From: Patescibacteria group bacterium
GTDB lineage: Bacteria > Patescibacteriota > Patescibacteriia > JACRDY01
Length of the DNA: 64,000 nucleotides
Direction of reading: 5' to 3'
Assembly (NCBI GenBank): GCA_041671565.1
Contig: JBAZBH010000001.1
Coordinates: 71,552 to 135,551, forward strand
Every line of letters starts with the position of its first letter. The first letter of the stretch is position 1. Positions 7,062-58,969 of this stretch are shown here, in pieces. The notes under the pieces are model-generated. The model had not been told where the DNA came from, ran no database searches, and saw only the letters and a program-made list of their open reading frames with translations. The position numbers were made by a program, and so were the translations under genes.

Positions 7062-7150
7062 TATGGCTTTATGGTTCTATGGTTTTATGGTTTTATGGTT
7101 AGGTGGCGTTTATCAACCCTTAACCATAAAGCCATAAAACCATATAACCA
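7062..7150. repeat. Intergenic palindromic repeat, family B (atggttttatggtt ... ccataaagccataaa)
   Basis: Related copies at 22317-22400 and 44938-45016. Confidence 0.7.
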
Positions 7151-8048: not shown

Positions 8049-8328
8049 GATTTTTATCTTTTGTCTTATCAACTGGTTTAAACTCCTCCATTTGCTTGAT
8101 GGCCTTGCCGCCCTCGCGGACAATGCCGACGGTAGAGATAATAAAGGCAATAAGAACGGCGCCTAAGTAACCCCACGGTTCGAGCCCGTATTTCTGATCT
8201 AACCAATCGCCCAAAAATATCGCTAAAACAATCGGTCCGGCAATCCAACCGCTGAGCTGGAAAAAAAGAATTAATGACGGCTGCCACCAGGGTTTTTCGT
8301 CGTTTTTTTTAGGTTCAAGCTCAGTCAT
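8038..8328 (-). CDS. ATP synthase protein I / AtpZ-like small membrane protein
   Basis: Two TM helices; first gene of the atp operon; start taken at MTELEPKK. Confidence 0.5.
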   Translation of the reverse strand: MTELEPKKNDEKPWWQPSLILFFQLSGWIAGPIVLAIFLGDWLDQKYGLEPWGYLGAVLIAFIISTVGIVREGGKAIKQMEEFKPVDKTKDKNHER

Positions 8329-8359
8329 ATTTATCCACAGAGACCGACTAAAAAGCACC

Positions 8360-8392
8360 AATATTATATATGATTAGAGAATATCGGTCAAT
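8360..8392 (-). promoter_or_regulatory. Sigma70-like promoter for the atp operon (TTGACC, 17 bp spacer, TATAAT on the minus strand)
   Basis: Minus-strand read ttgaccgatattctctaatcatatataat, about 30 nt upstream of the atpZ start. Confidence 0.5.
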
Positions 8393-8499
8393 AAAAAATT
8401 TTGATAATTTTGCCTTAAATTTATTTGACAAAACTTTACTAAATTTGGGAAATAGCCTTATTTCCGAACCCAACCTTGCTATAAAAACCGCCTTGTGAA

Positions 8500-9060
8500 A
8501 TAATAAAATTACCTGCATGAGCATCGCCGAGATTGGCCGACGCACAATGCGTTCAGCCAGAAAAAGCGCCATCTCCCCGGTGGCGCTAGTCCGGTCGCTT
8601 TTCGATCATTCGCGACGCTTTTCAAACCCCAGCGATCGGCTCTCGGCTCCGTACCGGGCGACGCGGTGGACCCACACCACCGCGTCGCCGTCCTTCTTCT
8701 TCGCACACTTCACAAAAATGGCAAAGCAGACGGAGATCTGGGCCTGAAATAACTCAGGCTTTGGGTTACAAGGCGCCGTTTGCTTTGCCACTCTTCTTAT
8801 TTTATGGCAGCCACAATCAGACTCCCTAGCGAGTCCTCCCAGCGGCTGTCTTTTTTTATTTCAGCACACCTCTACCACTTAGATACTCTAACTAATCCAG
8901 CAAGGGGTCCGGGGTGTCCGCCAGTTGGCGGACCGAACTGAGCCGACCGGACTGGTGGTAGTTAACAGATGTTGCGTCAGAAGAGAAGCTGGGGCTAGAA
9001 CCAAGGAAACCGAAGCACAGGCGAGGACGAAAATAATTTAAAGGATTTATTTAGTTAATT
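8500..9060. ncRNA. GC-rich, highly structured non-coding region; candidate structured RNA of unknown class
   Basis: No credible ORF. Contains a 13-bp perfect hairpin (ggcgacgcggtgg...ccaccgcgtcgcc, about 8668-8700) and a 14-bp stem (ggcaaagcagacgg...ccgtttgctttgcc, about 8718-8790). GC well above the flanks. Confidence 0.2.
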
Positions 9061-9062
9061 AA

Positions 9063-9095
9063 AACAACGGGGCAGATGCCCCGTTACTCCGCTAT
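9063..9095 (-). terminator. Intrinsic terminator for tatD with a conserved flank (minus sense atagcggagtaacg, hairpin, gtttt)
   Basis: Hairpin aacggggcagatgccccgtt; the same flanking motif with a compensatory stem is at 49826-49859. Confidence 0.55.
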
Positions 9096-9108
9096 ATAAC
9101 TTTCTAAA

Positions 9109-9984
9109 TTAAGCGAGTCTAAACAACTCCTTGGTATTTTTGAAAGTCTCCGCCGCCACTTCTGCCAAGCTCAAACCTTTTAACTCGGCGACTTTCTCGG
9201 CCACGAACTCCACAAAAGCCGGCTCGTTGCGCGTCCCCCGATGCGGCTCAGGCGCGAGAAACGGCGCGTCGGTTTCCACCAAAATCCGGTCTAAAGGCAA
9301 CTCTTTAACAATCGCCTGCAGTTCAACCGCCTTTTTAAAAGTAACAATCCCGGTAAAACCGACGAAAAATCCCAATGCCACAAACTTTTTCGCCTGTTCC
9401 ATGTTCCCGCCAAAACAATGAATCACGCCTCTGATTCTTGATTCTTGATTCTTGATTCTTGATTCTAATATCCCCAACAAATCGTCATAAGCGCCATACG
9501 GCTCGCCCTTATTCCCCCGGCAATGCAACACCAACGGCAAGTCCAGTTCCCCGGCCAGTTTAATAAACCCGGCCAAGGTCTCCCGCTGAACTTTCTTAAT
9601 TTCTTCAGCCGGCAGTTTATTCTCGCCAAAATAGTAATAATCCAGACCCACCTCCCCGATGCCCACCACTTTCTCTGACGACAAAGCCAATTCTTTATAT
9701 TTGTTATAATCAAACTTTTCTTGCTTGGTGACAAACTTGTATTCTTCGCCGTTAAAAGTGGCCGACTCGGTGATGTCGCCGGTCAGATGAATCGGGTGCA
9801 GACCAACCACAGCATAAACGCCTTCCGGATATTTTTCCGCGATTTTGATGCTCCGCGCCGAAGTGGAAAGCTGCGAACCGATATTGATCAGCCAAATCCC
9901 TTTACTTAAAGACCGCCGGATCACTTCCTCGGCGTCGTCTTTGTAGGCGTTGAAATTGATGTGGCAGTGAGAGTCAAACAACAT
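9109..9984 (-). CDS. tatD: TatD family metal-dependent hydrolase/DNase
   Basis: Start at the conserved MLFDSHCH motif. The upstream ORF extension to 10008 is encoded by the hairpin repeat and is likely spurious. Confidence 0.85.
   Translation of the reverse strand: MLFDSHCHINFNAYKDDAEEVIRRSLSKGIWLINIGSQLSTSARSIKIAEKYPEGVYAVVGLHPIHLTGDITESATFNGEEYKFVTKQEKFDYNKYKELALSSEKVVGIGEVGLDYYYFGENKLPAEEIKKVQRETLAGFIKLAGELDLPLVLHCRGNKGEPYGAYDDLLGILESRIKNQESRIRGVIHCFGGNMEQAKKFVALGFFVGFTGIVTFKKAVELQAIVKELPLDRILVETDAPFLAPEPHRGTRNEPAFVEFVAEKVAELKGLSLAEVAAETFKNTKELFRLA
9433..9472. repeat. Tandem heptanucleotide microsatellite (gattctt about 5.5 copies) inside the tatD coding sequence
   Basis: Direct read ctgattcttgattcttgattcttgattcttgattcta; encodes ESRIKNQESRIR in a loop before GVIHCFGG. 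Confidence 0.9.
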
Positions 9985-10060: not shown

Positions 10061-11716
10061 TTAATATATCTCCTTACGGTAGCACTCCTCACAATAAACC
10101 TTCTCCGGCCGATCTGGCGCGTAGGTGGTTTTAAACTCGTTAGCGCAACCTTCTTTCATGCATTGGCGATGGTATAGCGTTTTATTCTTATGGGTTTTTA
10201 GCCGCCGCAACATTCGGCAATCCGGGCAACAATCGGGCAAAGGAATATTTTGCTGTTGATAAAATCTGAATTCCGGTTTAATAATTTTATAATTGCGGCT
10301 GCACTCGGCGCAAGCCAAAATCTCTTGGCAAATTTTTTCGTCCAAACCGGCAACCTCATCAGGAATAGTTTTGATCGTTTCTTTTCCCTTAGTTCGGCCG
10401 ATTTCTTCCTGCCATTTGATGCCTTGCTTTAACACTTCCTCTTTGGTCAAGGCAAAATTTTCCAGCGAAGCGCGAGTTTCGTTCAACCCAAACGGCGCCA
10501 AGGCATAAGGGAAAAACTCACCCCACTCGCCCGCCGCTTTCATGGCAGTAATAATTTTGGATTTTAACTGATTATAATCGGCTTCGGCATATTTTTTATT
10601 TAATAGGCAAAAGGTTTGATTTTTTAAGCCAACTGAGCCAAAAATTTCCTTGGAACTAAAAATGCTGTCGCTATACCAAATGTGGCTGCTTTCCCAGACG
10701 ATCGAACAAAAAAAGGTGCCATAAGAGCCGCGGCCGGTAGAAGCGCACTGATAGGCTAATTGCGAAGGCGTGCCGCCATAACCGGTGCAATCATTGGCAT
10801 CTTTCATGTTAGAGCCGTTAATAACAAACCCGCAATCTTCGGCGTCCCAAATATCATAAACCTCATGGCAATTTTTGGTATAACGGACAAAATCACCGGT
10901 CGTTTTAACGGTTTTTAAATTATGGCTATAGGGGAAAATCGCTTCAGCTTTAACTGTCTGGTATTTCTGGCGCAGCTTAACTATTGCCGTTCGGCTGGCA
11001 AGTTGTTTTTTAAACTCCAGAATCTCGGCTTCGGTCGCTTGCCGGTTCCAAAGATAGTTAGTTTGATTGCGCAGATTAGTACAACCAAAACAATTGTGAC
11101 AACCAACACAGTCATAACAAAAATGGCAGTCGGCCGAGTCGCGAGAATATTCTAAATAAGAGCAATTATAACAATTTTCAATGTCAGTGCACTCATAGCA
11201 TAATTCGCTTTTATAACAAAAGGCGGCGTCCAGGCAATCGCGGGAATTATAAACCGACCAGCCATATAAACAATCTTCGCAATCGGTGGAGCCGGAAAAT
11301 TGCAAATAACAATTTTTATTCCGTGAAGTGTGGTGGGTATATTCGCTATTGATGGAATTAGTATTATTAATAGCGAGCCGCGGCACGGCCAAAAGGAGCT
11401 CGCCAAATTGCTCAAAAAATCCCCTTTGGAAATCATAATCGCGGCCAAAATCCAGTCCGTCCCACTTATCGCTAAACCAACATTCGTGGCAATAAACTTT
11501 ATAAGGTTTGTCCGGCGAATAAACCGAGACGATATTTTGTTGGCATAAATCGCATTTCCGCTGATACAAAATATATTCATTGCGCCAAACCGCCCGCTGG
11601 CGCGCTCGGCACGGCGGGCATTCCGTTGGCTCGGGCACGCCAATCCGGCCGTAAAACGCGCGGTCCTCGGGGTAAATGGTGAAGATGGATTGGCAGTTTT
11701 TACATTGCATAAGCAC
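10061..11716 (-). CDS. Cysteine-rich protein, paralog 1 of 4 (zinc-ribbon-like termini, central CxxC clusters); function unknown
   Basis: 551 aa. N-terminus CKNCQS..FYGRIGVPEPTxCPxCR; C-terminus LYHRQCMxxGCANEF.TTYAPDRPEKVYCEECYRKEIY; internal CYNCxxCxNCFGCxNLRN motifs. Confidence 0.6.
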   Translation of the reverse strand: MLMQCKNCQSIFTIYPEDRAFYGRIGVPEPTECPPCRARQRAVWRNEYILYQRKCDLCQQNIVSVYSPDKPYKVYCHECWFSDKWDGLDFGRDYDFQRGFFEQFGELLLAVPRLAINNTNSINSEYTHHTSRNKNCYLQFSGSTDCEDCLYGWSVYNSRDCLDAAFCYKSELCYECTDIENCYNCSYLEYSRDSADCHFCYDCVGCHNCFGCTNLRNQTNYLWNRQATEAEILEFKKQLASRTAIVKLRQKYQTVKAEAIFPYSHNLKTVKTTGDFVRYTKNCHEVYDIWDAEDCGFVINGSNMKDANDCTGYGGTPSQLAYQCASTGRGSYGTFFCSIVWESSHIWYSDSIFSSKEIFGSVGLKNQTFCLLNKKYAEADYNQLKSKIITAMKAAGEWGEFFPYALAPFGLNETRASLENFALTKEEVLKQGIKWQEEIGRTKGKETIKTIPDEVAGLDEKICQEILACAECSRNYKIIKPEFRFYQQQNIPLPDCCPDCRMLRRLKTHKNKTLYHRQCMKEGCANEFKTTYAPDRPEKVYCEECYRKEIY

Positions 11717-22316: not shown

Positions 22317-22400
22317 ATATGGTTTTATGGTTTTATGGCTCTATGGTTGGATAAGTTAAAGAGTCTAACCATAAAGCCATAAAGCCATAAAGCCATAAAC
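22317..22400. repeat. Intergenic palindromic repeat, family B copy
   Basis: ggttttatggttttatggctctatggttggataagttaaagagtctaaccataaagccataaagccataaagccataaac. Confidence 0.7.
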
Positions 22401-26097: not shown

Positions 26098-27168
26098 TTA
26101 ATTATCGACCAGTGATTCCGATGGATTTTGGCGGCCTTGAGTTATCTTCCAAACTTTTCGTTCAATTTTGCGTCCCCGACAATGTTTTAAAACTCCTAGA
26201 TATGATTGCAACGACTGATTAAACGACGCTTCGGTGATTAGGGTTTGTTCTAACATTTGCTTCTTCAAACGAATTTTCTTCAGCATCCGCTTTTTGGTTT
26301 TAGTCCGCAGAACAATATAACGCGGCAAGCTGACATAACCGAGAAAATCCACGCCTTGGCTGAATTTCTGGATAAAAACCTTGCCGGGGTGAAGTTCTAG
26401 CAATAGTTCCTGCTGTAAAAATTGCCTAATTTTTGTTAAGACGGATTTTAAATAATCTGAATTTTCATGAATGATAACAAAATCATCGGCGTAGCGAATA
26501 TAATGTTTGATTTTAAGCTGATGTTTTATGAACTGGTCAAAGACATTCATATAAATATTAACGAAAAGTTGGGAAGTGAGGTTGCCAAGCGGCAAGCCTT
26601 TACCGGGCGCGGTGGAAAAACTTTTAATAACTTTATCCAAAAGCCACCGAATATCCGCATTAGGTATATATTGGCTTGAAATTTTCAAGAGTATCTGATG
26701 GTTAATGCTGGCAAAAAACTTTCTGATATCGCCTTGTAAAACCCAAAAACCCCGAGTATTATTGCGGCTGACTTTATTAGCCATTCTTCTAAAATTACTA
26801 ACGGCTTTATGGGTGCCTTTATCCAGTCGGCAAGAATAGGAATTAGTAATAAAAGTTCTGTCAAAAAACGGATAAAGCTGGCGGTAAATGGCGTGATGCA
26901 ATAAGCGGTCGCGAACCGAGGCCTTATGGATATCGCGCGGTTTCGGGTCAAAGACTTTAAAATGTTCGTAACCGCCGTGTTGATAAGTTTGGTTTTTCAA
27001 ATCGTGGTGAAGTGCTAAGATGTTATTCATCAGCCGAGCGGAAAACTCCTGTACATCGCGCCGATCCCGTTTGCCTCTTAAAAACTCCGGCCAGGCTAAA
27101 AGCAGGTTTTCTAAAGAAATAATTTCTTCAAAACTATGACCGAATTGGATTTTCATACTACTAATCAT
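26098..27168 (-). CDS. Diversity-generating retroelement reverse transcriptase
   Basis: RT motifs: YADDFVII catalytic box; LPLGNLTSQLFVNIY (DGR-type GxxxSQ in place of QGxxxSP); RDIHKASVRDRLLHHAI. Start probably MKIQFGH. Confidence 0.85.
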   Translation of the reverse strand: MISSMKIQFGHSFEEIISLENLLLAWPEFLRGKRDRRDVQEFSARLMNNILALHHDLKNQTYQHGGYEHFKVFDPKPRDIHKASVRDRLLHHAIYRQLYPFFDRTFITNSYSCRLDKGTHKAVSNFRRMANKVSRNNTRGFWVLQGDIRKFFASINHQILLKISSQYIPNADIRWLLDKVIKSFSTAPGKGLPLGNLTSQLFVNIYMNVFDQFIKHQLKIKHYIRYADDFVIIHENSDYLKSVLTKIRQFLQQELLLELHPGKVFIQKFSQGVDFLGYVSLPRYIVLRTKTKKRMLKKIRLKKQMLEQTLITEASFNQSLQSYLGVLKHCRGRKIERKVWKITQGRQNPSESLVDN

Positions 27169-27186
27169 ACCCCCCCCCAACGGTTT

Positions 27187-27552
27187 TTGCCAGTCGTAGA
27201 AAAGGCCAAAACTGTTTATAAAAACTGGACAATAATTCATCGCGCTCTTCCCCGAGTTGAACGATTTGGCCTAGGGACAAAAATTGATTTTGTATTTCTT
27301 GAGCTTCTGGAATTATTAAGAAAATCGTCTTACACGCCAATTATCCAAAAAATAAATCTGCTGAGCGACGCTTTGGACAAAACTGATTCTCTGCGTTTTT
27401 TTATTCAGCTTCTTTGGGAATTAAAGCTGATTCCCAACCATCAATTCTCCAGCCTCGGCAGTGAAATAGAAAATATCGGCCGGATGATAAATGGCTGGAA
27501 AAAAGGACTAGTAATAAAAACTTCCGCCACTCAAGCGGAAGAAAGAAAATAG
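27187..27552 (+). CDS. avd: Avd-like accessory variability determinant (four-helix-bundle, 23S-rRNA-IVS family)
   Basis: ERFGLGTKIDFVFLELLELL...SEIENIGRMINGWKKGL pattern. Possible TTG start at 27187; the ATG at 27136 would overlap the RT. Lies on the opposite strand to the RT and TR. Confidence 0.55.
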   Translation: MPVVEKAKTVYKNWTIIHRALPRVERFGLGTKIDFVFLELLELLRKSSYTPIIQKINLLSDALDKTDSLRFFIQLLWELKLIPNHQFSSLGSEIENIGRMINGWKKGLVIKTSATQAEERK

Positions 27553-27648
27553 TCGCGGGAAATGAGGCGGTTGCCGGCGTTCCACTCATTCGGGTTCTCG
27601 ACCGAATTGGCGTTGACATTCCAACTGTCGTCGTTCCAGTTCGCGTTC
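27545..27648 (-). other. DGR template repeat (TR)
   Basis: 104-bp repeat of the VR; minus-sense sequence is AAC/AAT-rich (gtgAACgcgAACtggAACgacgacagttggAATgtcAACgccAAT...). Confidence 0.85.
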
Positions 27649-28010
27649 ACGGCCCACATTAACGCGCCTTATGCCATCTCTGCCACCGCCCCTTGTCCGC
27701 CAACTGGCGGACTTGGGGTTGTATTTTATTTGGGGCATAAAAAGCCCGCCAGTATAAGGCGCCGATTCTTTTCTTTTTTAATAAAATGCATGGCAACTCT
27801 TGTTTAAGGCAATACCCGAAACAATTCTCTGGCCAGACATTTTAAGACGCTCCGCGAAAGCCGTAGCCGCCGCGCCAAAGCAATCCTGATTTGTATTATA
27901 ACAGAAATAAAAAGACCCTTCTACTCCTTCGCCGTTGCGAAGTTTCAAAGGGTCTGAGATTCTCAGAGTCTAATCCGCCTGCTGGCGGCAAAAGATCTAA
28001 GGATCAAGAA

Positions 28011-28613
28011 TCAGCGGGAAACGAGGCGGGAGCCGGCGTCCCACCCAATCGGGTGCCCGACCGAAAAGGCGTTGACACTCCAACTGCCGTCGTACCAGCT
28101 CGCGTTCACGGCCCACAATGTTCCGTCGGTGGCACGAATGTAAAAGATATTCGCGTAACCATCTGCCCGGAGTGTGCCCTCCTCGCCCTTGGATTGTTTT
28201 TTAATCAGTTCCCAAAGGTGAAATAGGCTGGTTTCGTGCCGGTCGCCGAGCTCGGCGATAATCGACGCGTCCAGTGAGTTTTTGATAAACTCGTAAACGG
28301 TGAGGGTTGCCCCCGCGACCACGGTTTCAGTCTTCCCCAAGAAGTTCTGCTTGAAATTGTCGCTGAGCCAAAGCTTTACGCCCGTCTCATTGTCGGCCTT
28401 GAAGTGGTCGGCCGCGACGAACTTCTCCGCGCCGGCCACCGCGATGGTGGTGATAAATTTGAGAAGTTTCGACCATGGGTTCTCCCGACGGAGAAACCGC
28501 TTGAAAGCCTCCAACCACTGCAAGCCGTCCTTACCCGCCAACTTATCAAAAAAATCCTTGAGCGGTCCGACCACTTGGGCCAGAGCGTCGCCGAGCATGT
28601 CTTGTGTCGACAT
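28011..28613 (-). CDS. DGR target protein (200 aa) with C-terminal variable C-type-lectin-like region
   Basis: C-terminus ...WAVNASWYDGSWSVNAFSVGHPIGWDAGSRLVSR encoded by the VR; stop codon abuts the VR end. Confidence 0.75.
   Translation of the reverse strand: MSTQDMLGDALAQVVGPLKDFFDKLAGKDGLQWLEAFKRFLRRENPWSKLLKFITTIAVAGAEKFVAADHFKADNETGVKLWLSDNFKQNFLGKTETVVAGATLTVYEFIKNSLDASIIAELGDRHETSLFHLWELIKKQSKGEEGTLRADGYANIFYIRATDGTLWAVNASWYDGSWSVNAFSVGHPIGWDAGSRLVSR
28014..28117 (-). other. DGR variable repeat (VR) at the 3' end of the target gene
   Basis: Differs from the TR at 15 positions, every one a TR adenine (minus sense): T to C/G/A on the plus strand. Confidence 0.85.
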
Positions 28614-38815: not shown

Positions 38816-38997
38816 CTATAGACATCACCCTATGAAATAGCACTTTAGACGCCGCCGGAAATGATGAGCGGCGTCGGCCTGGAGCGGAAAAAAGCGGAAA
38901 TGTACTGGATGTACATTGAGAATTTTTTCCGTGAAGGCCAAGCCGCTCGCTTTTCCGGTGGATGGATAAGTGCTATTTCATAGGGTGATGTCTATAT
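38816..38997. mobile_element. MITE-like element: 30-bp perfect terminal inverted repeats (ctatagacatcaccctatgaaatagcactt / aagtgctatttcatagggtgatgtctatat) flanking about 120 bp of nested palindromes
   Basis: Direct reverse-complement comparison; no ORF inside. Confidence 0.5.
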
Positions 38998-48026: not shown

Positions 48027-48665
48027 ATGGCAAGCCCCGAAGAGTACGCAAAATTGTTCGCCGCGATGAGTAAATTCGCAAATGTCATGAAAAAGGGAGG
48101 GTATGATCTCAAGGATCTTTTCGAAAAACTGTCGGATGATCCTGACCTGTTGGAAAAAGTCGGCAAAGTTGTGGCCAAACCGCGGTTCAGGTTCGAAGTG
48201 GACTACGGTCAACCCCTCGGCGAGCTGGTCACGCTCGTCCGCGAACAACGGCATCGGGTAGTGGAAATCAGCGGACTGGTCGAAAAATTTTACCCCGATC
48301 CGGTCGGAGTCAGCGGTATCGTGAAGGTAAAGGGGTCGGAACTCTTCAACTTCACCGAAGTATTGAACGACCGCGTGATCCGCGTCGCCATGATGACGCA
48401 GGGCTTTAAGCCGGCAAACGCGCGAGAATTCCTGTGCTGGCTGATCGCCTACCCCGACCTTGAGGTCGGCGGACCTTTCCGGCAAAAACCCGTTGCCGCC
48501 CTCGGCGCCGTCTGCGAACAGAGCTGGCCAGATGCCAATAGCCAGATGGCGAACGGCGATCACCTCCAACTGGTCGAGGGGCGCCTGCGACCGCTCGCGG
48601 CCAACTTCGTCTATCCCGCCGGCATACAGTTCCTCGGCGTTCCCATGGAAGGAGGCGTGCGATGA
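48027..48665 (+). CDS. Hypothetical cytoplasmic protein (212 aa) with C-terminal motif FVYPAGIQFLGVPMEGGVR
   Basis: SD ctagAAGGAGcacgctATG; higher-GC region; stop overlaps the next start (ATGA). Confidence 0.6.
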   Translation: MASPEEYAKLFAAMSKFANVMKKGGYDLKDLFEKLSDDPDLLEKVGKVVAKPRFRFEVDYGQPLGELVTLVREQRHRVVEISGLVEKFYPDPVGVSGIVKVKGSELFNFTEVLNDRVIRVAMMTQGFKPANAREFLCWLIAYPDLEVGGPFRQKPVAALGAVCEQSWPDANSQMANGDHLQLVEGRLRPLAANFVYPAGIQFLGVPMEGGVR

Positions 48666-49600
48666 GACCATCGACTTTATTGGTGCCCGCGATTCTGATC
48701 ATGGTCTACACGATGCTGGCCAACCCTATGCTGTGTGATCGCGCCTGTGACAACTGCAACAATGACGACAAAATCGCTACTGAAGCCACGCCAGAACCGG
48801 AAACAATACTGGATCCGGAAACCACGCTGGAATTAGAAGAGACGCCGGAGCCGATCTGCAAAGAGGTTAGCTACTGCCAAGAACAACCAGTCGGTAAAGG
48901 CGGCTGGCGCTACCATCAACGGTCAATAGCCGAGCAAGTTGAAATTCTGCAAAGCTATTTCCCGCGGCTCAGTTTCGTCGGCCTGGACGAAGCTATGGAA
49001 ATCCCCGACGGCGCAGAAGGGCCGTTCGTGATTCTGAAATGGCAGAGTGTGGCCCCCACTTACAACCGGGCTTTCCAAAAGGTTATAAAAATGATCCTAC
49101 GGAAAAACTATAAAAATATCTGCCAAAAGGATGAGTGTAGTGTGAGGCAAGACCCGGACACGGCCAAAATGATTGATGAGATCAGCGCCAACCAGGCCCG
49201 GGACGCTTTCATACTGCCGGCTCAATGGAGCGACCAACGCTACCATGGCCTTTCAGCCCGAAAAGCTCTTAAACAATTCCTGCCTAACGAGTTCGGCCTG
49301 GACTCGTTCAGCGTCGCCTGCATGTTGTTGACACACCCTGAACGAATCTCCCATTTTTGGGTGGCAATATACGCTACCGGCGGCGTGATTCAAAAAAAAG
49401 TGTCACCAACAACAAGGGGATTAGACTGCGCCCCGCTATTCAGTTACGCATTGCAGTTCGACTCAGTGTCATTCTGCCATTCCTGGGTTGAGCTTAGGAA
49501 CGATTCGACTACCACGGCGACCGGATTCATTCCTCTTGAGTTCGTCTATCCCGCCGGAATGGATTTCCTCGGTGTTCCCATGGAAGGGGGCACGCGATGA
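48662..49600 (+). CDS. Hypothetical secreted Cys-rich protein (312 aa) sharing a C-terminal domain with the upstream gene (…FVYPAGMDFLGVPMEGGTR)
   Basis: Signal-peptide-like N-terminus; ATGA overlap with both neighbours. Confidence 0.6.
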   Translation: MRPSTLLVPAILIMVYTMLANPMLCDRACDNCNNDDKIATEATPEPETILDPETTLELEETPEPICKEVSYCQEQPVGKGGWRYHQRSIAEQVEILQSYFPRLSFVGLDEAMEIPDGAEGPFVILKWQSVAPTYNRAFQKVIKMILRKNYKNICQKDECSVRQDPDTAKMIDEISANQARDAFILPAQWSDQRYHGLSARKALKQFLPNEFGLDSFSVACMLLTHPERISHFWVAIYATGGVIQKKVSPTTRGLDCAPLFSYALQFDSVSFCHSWVELRNDSTTTATGFIPLEFVYPAGMDFLGVPMEGGTR

Positions 49601-49746
49601 AAAAATGGGTCACCATACTCCTTAAAGGAGTGCTCGTGGTGGCGTTAGCCGCCATAACAATTATTTTGGCGATGATAGTGGCGGGGGTGATGGTGGTGAC
49701 AGTCTTCTACTGCGCCATAATTATTGCCGCCGGCGGCCACATGTAA
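49597..49746 (+). CDS. Small hydrophobic protein (49 aa), translationally coupled
   Basis: ATGA overlap with the upstream stop; single TM. Confidence 0.4.
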   Translation: MKKWVTILLKGVLVVALAAITIILAMIVAGVMVVTVFYCAIIIAAGGHM

Positions 49747-49768
49747 TCACACAAACCGTTCATTCGGA

Positions 49769-49808
49769 AAAACCGCTCAGGTCTATTCGACTGGGCGGTT
49801 TTCTTTTT
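49769..49808 (+). terminator. Rho-independent terminator (12-bp stem with one G.U pair, then T-run)
   Basis: aaaaccgctcag-gtctattcga-ctgggcggttttcttttt. Confidence 0.65.
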
Positions 49809-49825
49809 GGCTGGAGATTAATAGA

Positions 49826-49859
49826 AACAACGAGGCCGAAGGCCTCGTTACTCCGCTAT
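49826..49859 (-). terminator. Conserved-flank terminator motif (second copy; stem differs by compensatory changes from the 9063-9095 copy)
   Basis: aacaacgaggccgaaggcctcgttactccgctat versus aacaacggggcagatgccccgttactccgctat. Confidence 0.5.
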
Positions 49860-49921
49860 TTTAACACCTTAAATCTAACCCTCTGGACTCGGGACTTTGG
49901 ACTTTGGACTTTGGACTATTA

Positions 49922-58307: not shown

Positions 58308-58340
58308 GCCCGTCGATTCATTTCGATGGGCGGTTTTTTT
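58308..58340. terminator. Rho-independent terminator (gcccgtcga-ttcatt-tcgatgggc then T8)
   Basis: 9-bp stem with one G.U pair, then a T-run. Confidence 0.6.
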
Positions 58341-58969
58341 TAGTTAAAATTATTCCTATCCCTCTCCCACAGCAAAGGGTTATCTCGGATATATTCCACG
58401 ATATTGTTATAATCATCCTCGTTACTGATAATATGCTCATAATAATTCCTCTGCCATAGCCGATGATTAAACGGCAACCAATGGTTTTGTTTAACCTGTT
58501 TGATATATTCATTAGTGGTCATAGTTTTAAACCATTGGATAAATTGAGGCACGCCTCGTAGGGGCGGACCCGTGTGTCCGCCCCGAACAAGGGTGTTTCC
58601 GGCCATAACAAATTTATTACCGTCCATGGATACAGGTTCTGAACAAACGGCCGAGTTTGAACAAATCCCAGGGCGGACACGCGGGTCCGCCCCTACAACA
58701 CCCATGATCTCAATAATGGCGTGTAAATGGTTAGGCATAATGACAAATGGGCCTAATTTGATGCCAGGGAATTTCTTTTCCAATTTTAGCCACCAATCCA
58801 AGACCAGCCTGCCAGCTTGGTTTAAAACCATCTGTCTGTCTTTAATCTCGCCAAATAGGTGTTTCTTATCTTGGGTGCAAAGGGTAATAAAATAATCGCC
58901 TGACTGGGTGTAATCGTAGGTGGCAAGGCGAATGGAATGGCGATGATGGAGGTTGGGTTGATAAGGCAT
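58340..58969 (-). mobile_element. REP-associated tyrosine transposase (RAYT; IS200/IS605-like Y1 transposase) with an in-frame 150-bp insertion
   Basis: HuH motif MPNHLHAII; RAYT-like C-terminus WQRNYYEHIISNEDDYNNIVEYIRDNP; extra 50 aa relative to typical RAYTs. Confidence 0.65.
58557..58696. repeat. REP-like GC-rich palindrome doublet inside the RAYT ORF (cgtaggggcggacccgtgtgtccgcccc ... gggcggacacgcgggtccgcccctac)
   Basis: The two ends are inverted copies, each itself a hairpin. Confidence 0.75.

Follow-up and report, generated by a model that had tools for sequence, protein, structure and literature searches.

Genomes of the Candidate Phyla Radiation (CPR), or Patescibacteria, are small and densely coded, and to our knowledge almost nothing is known of the regulatory RNAs of these bacteria. 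The closest described systems for a long, structured, intergenic locus are the large and housekeeping RNAs (OLE, ROOL, GOLLD, raiA, HEARO, RNase P RNA, transfer-messenger RNA (tmRNA), 6S RNA and signal recognition particle (SRP) RNA), the small RNA (sRNA) and cis-antisense loci with a sigma-70 promoter and an intrinsic terminator, the TIGR arrays, the RAYT-mobilised palindromes of the repetitive extragenic palindromic (REP), BIME and REPIN type, the miniature inverted-repeat transposable elements (MITEs), and the target-recognition hairpins of diversity-generating retroelements (DGRs). The locus considered here is a GC-rich block of about 520 bp, poor in open reading frames (ORFs), at 9027->8509 (in minus-strand order) of a 64,000-nt stretch of DNA (the window; positions 71,552 to 135,551 of contig JBAZBH010000001.1, assembly GCA_041671565.1) from a metagenome-assembled genome (MAG) of the CPR/Patescibacteria. 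The block is inserted between the terminator of tatD and the AT-rich promoter region of the atp operon. We tentatively read it as a lineage-specific non-coding insertion that may be transcribed on its own into one or two highly structured RNAs, and that would give rise neither to a protein nor to an atp leader.

The GC content of the block, described in the first-pass annotation of this DNA as far above that of the flanks, is 55.6% over 8510-9020 and reaches 59.5% at 8500-8699, compared with 30.5% at 8300-8499 and 42% at 9000-9199. Against the window as a whole (mean 46.8%, standard deviation 5.1%, 500-nt windows) the block is only about 1.7 standard deviations high, and ten coding stretches of the window match or exceed its GC content. 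The folding of the block exceeds chance. Compared with dinucleotide shuffles, the minimum free energy (MFE) of 8480-9100 has a z-score of -5.2 on the plus strand and -4.5 on the minus strand, and that of the core at 8511-8862 has z-scores of -6.97 (plus) and -4.59 (minus), while 8863-9062 folded alone is not significant (-0.1 and -1.3). No other intergenic gap of the window contains as long a run of 150-nt windows with z-scores of about -3 or lower as the one at 8501-8850.

The structured core (8511-8862), delimited by its MFE z-score and by the sustained negative 150-nt windows, is a chain of four hairpin domains: a multi-branch domain, a 13-bp hairpin, a 15-bp stem with an inner hairpin, and a hairpin at 8806-8850. 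The multi-branch domain (8526-8647) appears in both the MFE and the centroid structures, is closed by the helix GCCGAGA/TCTCGGC (8526-8532/8641-8647), and holds the hairpins 8535-8558 and 8565-8587 and the stem CCGGTCGCT/AGCGATCGG; its z-score is -3.8 to -4.8 on the plus strand versus -1.5 to -1.9 on the minus strand. The perfect 13-bp hairpin pointed out in the first-pass annotation is present at 8657-8689 (GGCGACGCGGTGG/CCACCGCGTCGCC, GC-rich, 7-nt loop; z-score alone -5.6 on the plus and -4.1 on the minus strand) and is the longest perfect hairpin within the window. The 14-bp stem with one G.U pair and an enclosed smaller hairpin was recovered as 14-15 bp at 8719-8733/8776-8791, part of a stem of 15-20 bp at 8714-8795 (z-scores -5.3 and -5.2 on the plus and minus strands) that encloses the hairpin 8740-8764 and has its one internal G.U pair (8729/8780) on the plus strand only. 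The further stems placed at 8890-8950 form an irregular hairpin of about 90 nt (8872-8961; z-scores -2.4, plus, and -1.8, minus), the tip of which is the 18-mer GTCCGCCAGTTGGCGGAC (8916-8933). A long-range pair (8588-8597/8944-8953) makes a perfect 10-bp duplex with no bulge. The linkers between the domains are almost free of G and rich in C and U on the plus strand (TCCTTCTTCTTC, CTCTTCTTATTTT), hence rich in A and G on the minus strand, and the pattern GGCGACGCGGTGGNNNNNNNCCACCGCGTCGCC is specific to the block.

The ORFs of the block measure 76, 65, 61, 53, 38 and 38 aa, and none of them has a match in Pfam (the 61-aa ORF was checked at E-values up to 1 and 0.01). No homologue of the 76-aa and 65-aa translations was found among 5.8 billion proteins. 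Five of the six ORFs have codon-usage scores of -0.12 to -0.32, like those of non-coding frames (reference values: real genes 0.25 +/- 0.09, wrong frames -0.31 +/- 0.18), and these ORFs contain the 13-bp and 15-bp stems, which are perfect or nearly so. The block thus looks non-coding, and the opinion of the first-pass annotation that the region is free of genuine ORFs, the long ones being GC artefacts, agrees with the lack of Pfam matches, the lack of credible homologues and the codon usage of all ORFs except the 61-aa one. That one, on the minus strand at 8791->8606, is the focus of a very improbable alternative, in which the block would be a gene for a small protein or a pseudogene, for example a homing-endonuclease gene in decay that retains a NUMOD-like repeat. 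Its codon-usage score of 0.07 lies between the coding (0.25) and non-coding (-0.31) values, the sequence upstream of it is A/T-rich as for real genes here, and a search of 1.8 billion representative proteins gave one match (E-value 1.9e-4), to a GIY-YIG/NUMOD repeat endonuclease. This match sums weak matches to six near-identical repeats of a single protein, so that its score is inflated, and we regard it as spurious after pairwise alignment and a Pfam check; neither NUMOD nor any other Pfam model matches the ORF, and thousands of other NUMOD proteins gave no match. In addition, the 15-bp stem buries the start codon of the ORF, and the ORF encloses the perfect 13-bp hairpin.

The block belongs to no known RNA family. 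No match to Rfam 15 at the gathering score was found in the whole window, which answers the Rfam scan proposed in the first-pass annotation, and at E-values up to 10 the region 8300-9200 gave only four noise matches (symR, with 19 bits versus a gathering score of 61, mir-149, sR52 and an internal ribosome entry site (IRES)). ARAGORN found neither a tRNA nor a tmRNA in the window. The negative finding of the first-pass annotation on tmRNA, RNase P and SRP thus holds, and it extends to all other Rfam 15 families, 6S RNA, riboswitches and group I/II introns included. A tmRNA is rejected, as there is no tRNA-like domain (ARAGORN) and no match to the Rfam tmRNA model. RNase P RNA is likewise rejected by eye: of what we take to be its consensus, namely CR-I (GAGGAAAGUCC), CR-V (ACAGAAnCCGGCUUA) and a P4 helix with a bulged U, the block shares only AGUCCGG, and the pair 8588-8597/8944-8953 has no bulged U. 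The block is similar to the large and housekeeping RNAs listed above in its size range, in a GC content raised over that of a lower-GC genome and in its many domains, but differs from them in lacking a covariance-model match, a tRNA-like domain, a CR-I/CR-V P4 helix (by eye) and GNRA loops, in having longer and more perfect helices, and in not being conserved in relatives.

TIGR arrays consist of two alternating repeats of 8-12 nt with 9-nt spacers (a 36-nt unit) or of repeated stem-loops; they have been reported mainly from phages and parasitic bacteria, and TIGR-Tas systems are frequent in CPR bacteria (PMC12045711). The block resembles them as a non-coding structured locus in the genome of a parasitic bacterium that standard annotation overlooks. 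It differs from them in having no alternating 8-12-nt repeats, no 36-nt period and no Nop-domain neighbour: TRF reported nothing in the block at a minimum score of 30, the autocorrelation showed no peak at lag 36 or elsewhere (maximum z-score 2.3), the only direct repeats are three pairs at chance level, and no Nop-domain Tas gene adjoins the block (the neighbours being tatD and atpI/atpB, beyond which lies a 551-aa ORF without a Pfam match). The missing periodicity and the missing Nop-domain neighbour exclude a TIGR or CRISPR-like array. With sRNA and cis-antisense loci the block shares its intergenic position, its non-coding character, the combination of hairpins with single-stranded linkers, and candidate transcription signals at its edges, which here are convergent on both strands; compared with typical sRNAs it is far longer (350-465 nt for the RNAs proposed below) and more heavily paired, and it has neither a family nor conservation.

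The insertion status of the block follows from comparison of 80 species-representative atpB loci and the loci of the three nearest TatD relatives (L081, L082 and L084). The closest TatD protein outside the genome itself, among 5.8 billion proteins, is 69% identical. The F-ATPase a-subunit of the window is 55-73% identical to its closest species-representative relatives, which are MAGs labelled Falkowbacteria, Parcubacteria or Patescibacteria. The neighbours of the block are tatD (10008->9109, minus strand, PF01026), and its terminator hairpin (AACGGGGCA/TGCCCCGTT, followed by GTTTTAATT; 9066-9085, minus strand), which forms the right boundary of the block, and, on the other side, the atp operon, with an atpI-like ORF (8331->8038, minus strand, PF09527) followed by atpB and the rest of the operon. 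AT-rich stretches of about 40 nt and 120 nt separate the block from the tatD terminator and from the atp promoter, respectively. This promoter, TTGACC-17-TATAAT (8363-8391, minus strand; 11 of 12 matches in the promoter scan), is the left boundary of the block.

The order tatD-atpI-atpB is kept in the three nearest relatives, with tatD-atpI spacers of 128 bp (L081), 157 bp (L084) and 500 bp (L082) versus 778 nt here; the spacer of L082 holds an unrelated small membrane ORF. The same hexamers with the same spacing occur directly upstream of atpI in L081 and L082, a conservation that supports the promoter assignment made for the window. Because this conserved promoter is located downstream of the block on the minus strand (8391-8363), the block lies outside the atp transcription unit and forms a separate unit, and an atp operon leader or riboswitch is rejected. 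The tatD-atpI spacers of the fetched loci are short and rich in AT. Among the 84 loci, tatD is upstream of atpB in 47, about 30 of which have tatD-atpI spacers of 32-350 nt, and the GC content of all those spacers is at about or below that of their own genomes. Nothing similar to the block was found in the 47 related loci, and blastn, nhmmer and tblastx searches of the block against all fetched loci (about 200) gave no similarity. Phage and plasmid collections, searched with blastn in a distant mode, contained nothing relevant, and when viral contigs were scanned for exact matches to four segments of the block, three of these had no match, while the fourth, the 18-mer, occurred only in high-GC phage DNA (the one match inspected lies in a contig of 67% GC). 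Conservation, by which the first-pass annotation had suggested judging the candidate, thus formally fails, with none of the 47 related tatD-atpB loci carrying the block; as the nearest genome has only 69% TatD identity, what this absence demonstrates is restriction of the block to the lineage and not a lack of function. The block was thus inserted, in this lineage only, ahead of a promoter that is itself conserved.

Candidate transcription signals are present on both strands and are convergent (about 8492->8857 on the plus and about 9023->8559 on the minus strand). On the plus strand, a promoter-like TTGCTA-17-AATAAT preceded by TG (8476-8504; 9 of 12 matches, by consensus match only) predicts a start at about 8492-8512 and overlaps an extended -10 element, TGcTATAAA (8477-8485), recognised by eye. 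A terminator-like structure at 8806-8857 consists of the stem GGCAGCC/GGCTGTC with an internal G.U pair (8807/8849), the inner hairpin GACTC/GAGTC and a run of seven T (8851-8857), with a fold z-score of -3.4. On the minus strand, a canonical intrinsic-terminator-like hairpin (8587->8559; AGCGCCA, a 9-nt loop, TGGCGCT, then TTTTTCT) was recognised by eye, the terminator scan having missed it because of its loop limit of 8 nt. A weak promoter-like TTAACT-17-TATTTT (9030-9058, minus strand; 8 of 12 matches, by eye, below the scan threshold) predicts a start at about 9023, at the edge of the GC-rich block.

The structures, their excess over chance, the non-coding character, the lack of a known family and the insertion status are shown by the analysis, whereas transcription of the block, the strand used and the function of the RNA are inferred. 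A plus-strand RNA of about 350-365 nt would start at the extended -10 promoter (8476-8504) and end at the hairpin and T-run at 8806-8857, and a minus-strand RNA of about 465 nt would start at about 9023, just past the tatD terminator, or arise by read-through from tatD, and end at the terminator 8587->8559. Two convergent RNAs overlapping by about 300 nt would be the simplest reading that uses all of the signals, and the strand that folds better changes from plus in the left part of the block to minus in the right part, as it would for convergent units. Such RNAs may serve as trans- or cis-antisense regulators, or as an RNA pair acting in a long duplex. Put more specifically, and with more doubt, the block may be an undescribed, lineage-restricted large structured non-coding RNA of a CPR bacterium, or a convergent sense/antisense pair, acquired next to the atp operon and belonging to no described RNA family. 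What speaks for a functional RNA is how strong and extensive the folding is, the candidate signals for transcription at either edge, the lack of coding features, and the fact that long non-coding DNA is rare in a compact genome. The position outside the atp transcription unit, the two internal G.U pairs and the minus-strand composition given below also count in favour of this reading.

Several points weigh against this reading. No homologue was found in any collection searched, so that there is neither covariation nor conservation. The promoter-like hexamers sit in AT-rich DNA, where they arise easily, and three were found versus 1.3 expected. The evidence on the strand conflicts: the two internal G.U pairs favour the plus strand, whereas the minus strand is favoured by its overall composition (G 31, A 25, C 23, U 21%) and its A-rich, C-poor unpaired regions, which resemble those of known structural RNAs when rRNA is taken as the guide, and the G.U pairs stacked on helices shared by both strands number 4 versus 5. 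A role of the C-rich loops as mimics of the anti-Shine-Dalgarno sequence was rejected, and occlusion of ribosome-binding sites by such loops, the usual mode of sRNAs, is inapplicable, since most of the genes here have no Shine-Dalgarno sequence. Finally, the loops of the six hairpins include no GNRA or UNCG tetraloop, and the stems are unusually long and perfect; long perfect stems without such tetraloops look more like young DNA palindromes than like an old folded RNA.

The same signals bear on a cis-acting role for the minus-strand neighbours, in which the block would be a long, structured 3' untranslated region of tatD, a transcriptional insulator against read-through into atp, or an additional far-upstream attenuated atp leader. 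This is unlikely, despite some favourable circumstances: nearly all genes are on the minus strand (49 of the 58 ORFs kept in the window), the short U-tract of the tatD terminator makes read-through plausible, and the canonical minus-strand terminator 8587->8559 precedes the atp -35 hexamer by about 170 nt. On the other side, spacers of 30-350 bp suffice in the relatives, which have the same promoter, no Rfam family of riboswitches or leaders matches, 520 nt far exceed the need of an insulator, and the plus-strand terminator with its seven T would be left without a role; the position of the conserved promoter downstream of the block, described above, speaks against a leader in particular.

The shape of the stems leads to the main rival account, namely that the block is selfish or decayed palindromic DNA without a function of its own, made of REP/BIME- or MITE-like hairpin insertions or left behind by a mobile element, which we consider possible but doubtful. 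Like REP, BIME and REPIN elements and MITEs, the block is a GC-rich cluster of extragenic palindromes in an intergenic spacer; it is present in this lineage only, and its long near-perfect stems without GNRA or UNCG loops are those of young palindromes. An AT-rich inverted repeat of 13 nt, TGAAATAATAAAA (8496-8508) and TTTTTTTATTTCA (8851-8863), complementary at 12 of 13 positions (92%), brackets the core at 8496-8863 in the manner of terminal inverted repeats. This repeat could be due to chance in AT-rich sequence, and no target-site duplication is visible at its ends. A gene with a Y1_Tnp domain is present in the window, one hairpin tip of the block is found again elsewhere in the window, and the genome contains other palindromic insertions. 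Against this account, no part of the block beyond the 18-mer is repeated in the window, and, the 18-mer aside, nothing recurs in the about 200 fetched loci or in the phage, plasmid and viral collections. The hairpins all differ from one another, none has a 5' GTAG as REP-type units do, and compared with a MITE there is no second copy of the 8496-8863 unit within the window. A dead insert of 520 bp would also be unexpected in a compact genome. The description as a structured RNA candidate or a degraded element, given in the first-pass annotation, remains the honest one.

Two kinds of palindromic insertion were recorded elsewhere in the window. Inverted arrays of the octamers ATGGTTTT/ATGGCTTT build two long near-perfect hairpins at 7078-7146 and 22318-22396 (z-scores -6 to -10), one of them in the atpB-atpE spacer, and look like a genome-specific palindromic repeat family. 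An IS200-like Y1 transposase ORF (58340-58969, minus strand, Y1_Tnp; RAYT-like) contains, in frame, two inverted units of GTAG plus a palindrome (GTAGGGGCGGACCCGYGTGTCCGCCC) at 58558-58584 and 58671-58696. These form a REPIN-like doublet within coding sequence, translated as GADPRVRPG ... GGHTGPPLRG, and their sequence is unlike that of the hairpins of the block.

The repeated hairpin tip is shared with a complete DGR at 26098-28613, 19 kb from the block. This DGR comprises a reverse transcriptase (RT; 27240->26098, minus strand, RVT_1), bAvd (27136-27552, opposite to the RT gene and overlapping its start), a template repeat (TR; 27556-27659) and a variable repeat (VR; 28015-28118) at the 3' end of a 200-aa target without a Pfam match; TR and VR differ by 15 mismatches, all at TR adenines. 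A GC hairpin is located 22 nt 3' of the VR, which agrees with the arrangement of DGR targets (PMC3240598), the hairpins of which have a GC-rich stem of 7-10 bp and a 4-nt loop with the consensus GRNA (Guo et al. 2011, PMC3240598). At 27695-27712, 35 nt 5' of the TR, the 18-mer of the block is found again as its exact reverse complement (E-value 6e-4). The pattern CCGCC-N4-GGCGG is present three times in the window versus 0.13 expected, one copy being in the block and the other two at the DGR. The hairpin of the block (8916-8933) shares with a DGR target hairpin or cruciform the 7-bp GC-rich stem and the 4-nt loop, besides its identity with the hairpin of the window's own DGR, but its loop is AGTT/AACT, not GRNA, and it has no adjacent variable repeat or IMH (the homing-initiation sequence at the VR end). 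With the 18-mer masked, local alignment of the block with the DGR region stayed within the range of shuffles on both strands, and no TR- or VR-like sequence was detected.

A metagenome scan with the 18-mer gave at least 120 loci. Among the matches listed, L088 and L098 are homologous DGRs; L088 has the 18-mer hairpin at the same DGR position with a conserved flank, and the hairpin also occurs near the DGR of L098. High-GC matches in the same list are coding (peptide VRQLAD), dozens of low-GC matches are tips of unrelated hairpins and terminators, and none of the matches listed has flanks related to the block. A 7-bp stem with a 4-nt loop leaves no more than 11 free positions, and by our estimate identical tips are expected by chance in a database of that scale. 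We therefore give hardly any credence to a link of the block with the DGR, in which the 18-nt hairpin would be a copied DGR cis element (a remote or former target site, or a binding site of RT-Avd).

Two further features were noticed among these loci. The region 5' of the TR (in TR sense) is conserved in the two metagenome DGRs (window 27660-27745; L088 430-760; L098 150-580) and carries a GC hairpin, with the same 18-mer in L088 and a different hairpin in L098, followed by a conserved box, TTGGGnTGTATTTTATTnGGG, in which TAAAAT could be the -10 element of a promoter for the TR RNA. The soil-metagenome contigs L097, L120, L124, L159, L173, L192 and L206 have in common a repeated element of at least about 100 nt, with AGGATTAGGTAGAATATTCGCAAATCCC, the 18-mer hairpin and GGCTGGT... 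in this order and two copies 54 nt apart in L120; this repeat family has no relation to the block and shares the hairpin tip by coincidence.

Further observations concern the surroundings of the block. A cysteine-rich ORF of 551 aa (10061-11716, minus strand), located between a cvpA-like region and tatD, has zinc-ribbon-like CxxC pairs and repeated C-rich modules; it is the ORF without a Pfam match mentioned above and was not found at that position in L081 and L082. Within tatD, the stretch 9432-9465 consists of about five in-frame repeats of the heptamer GATTCTT (protein ...ESRIKNQESRIR...). Upstream of 36 minus-strand genes of the window, the Shine-Dalgarno motif is missing from most, and the 20 nt before the start codons are A/T-rich, with TAAA, ATAA and AATA as the commonest tetramers. 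Two other strong intergenic folds, a hairpin of about 115 nt at 38849-38962 (MFE z-score -7) and a 300-nt region at 49601-49900 on the plus strand, downstream of the plus-strand gene 48662-49600 (z-scores -3.4 to -5.6), have no match in Rfam.

The block is a real, well-delimited orphan feature of no known family, but familiar in its general kind. Since it is known from a single genome, and has neither conservation nor a partner gene, it cannot open a general question. The 18-mer adds a caution: a GC-rich hairpin tip of 18 nt can turn up, letter for letter, at hundreds of unrelated sites, and such recurrence is no evidence of homology. For the CPR/Patescibacteria, the value of the block is that of a flagged locus and of an example of lineage-specific palindromic insertions in a compact genome; a structured RNA of 350-465 nt outside all families, if true, would be an added data point and a candidate for metatranscriptomics.

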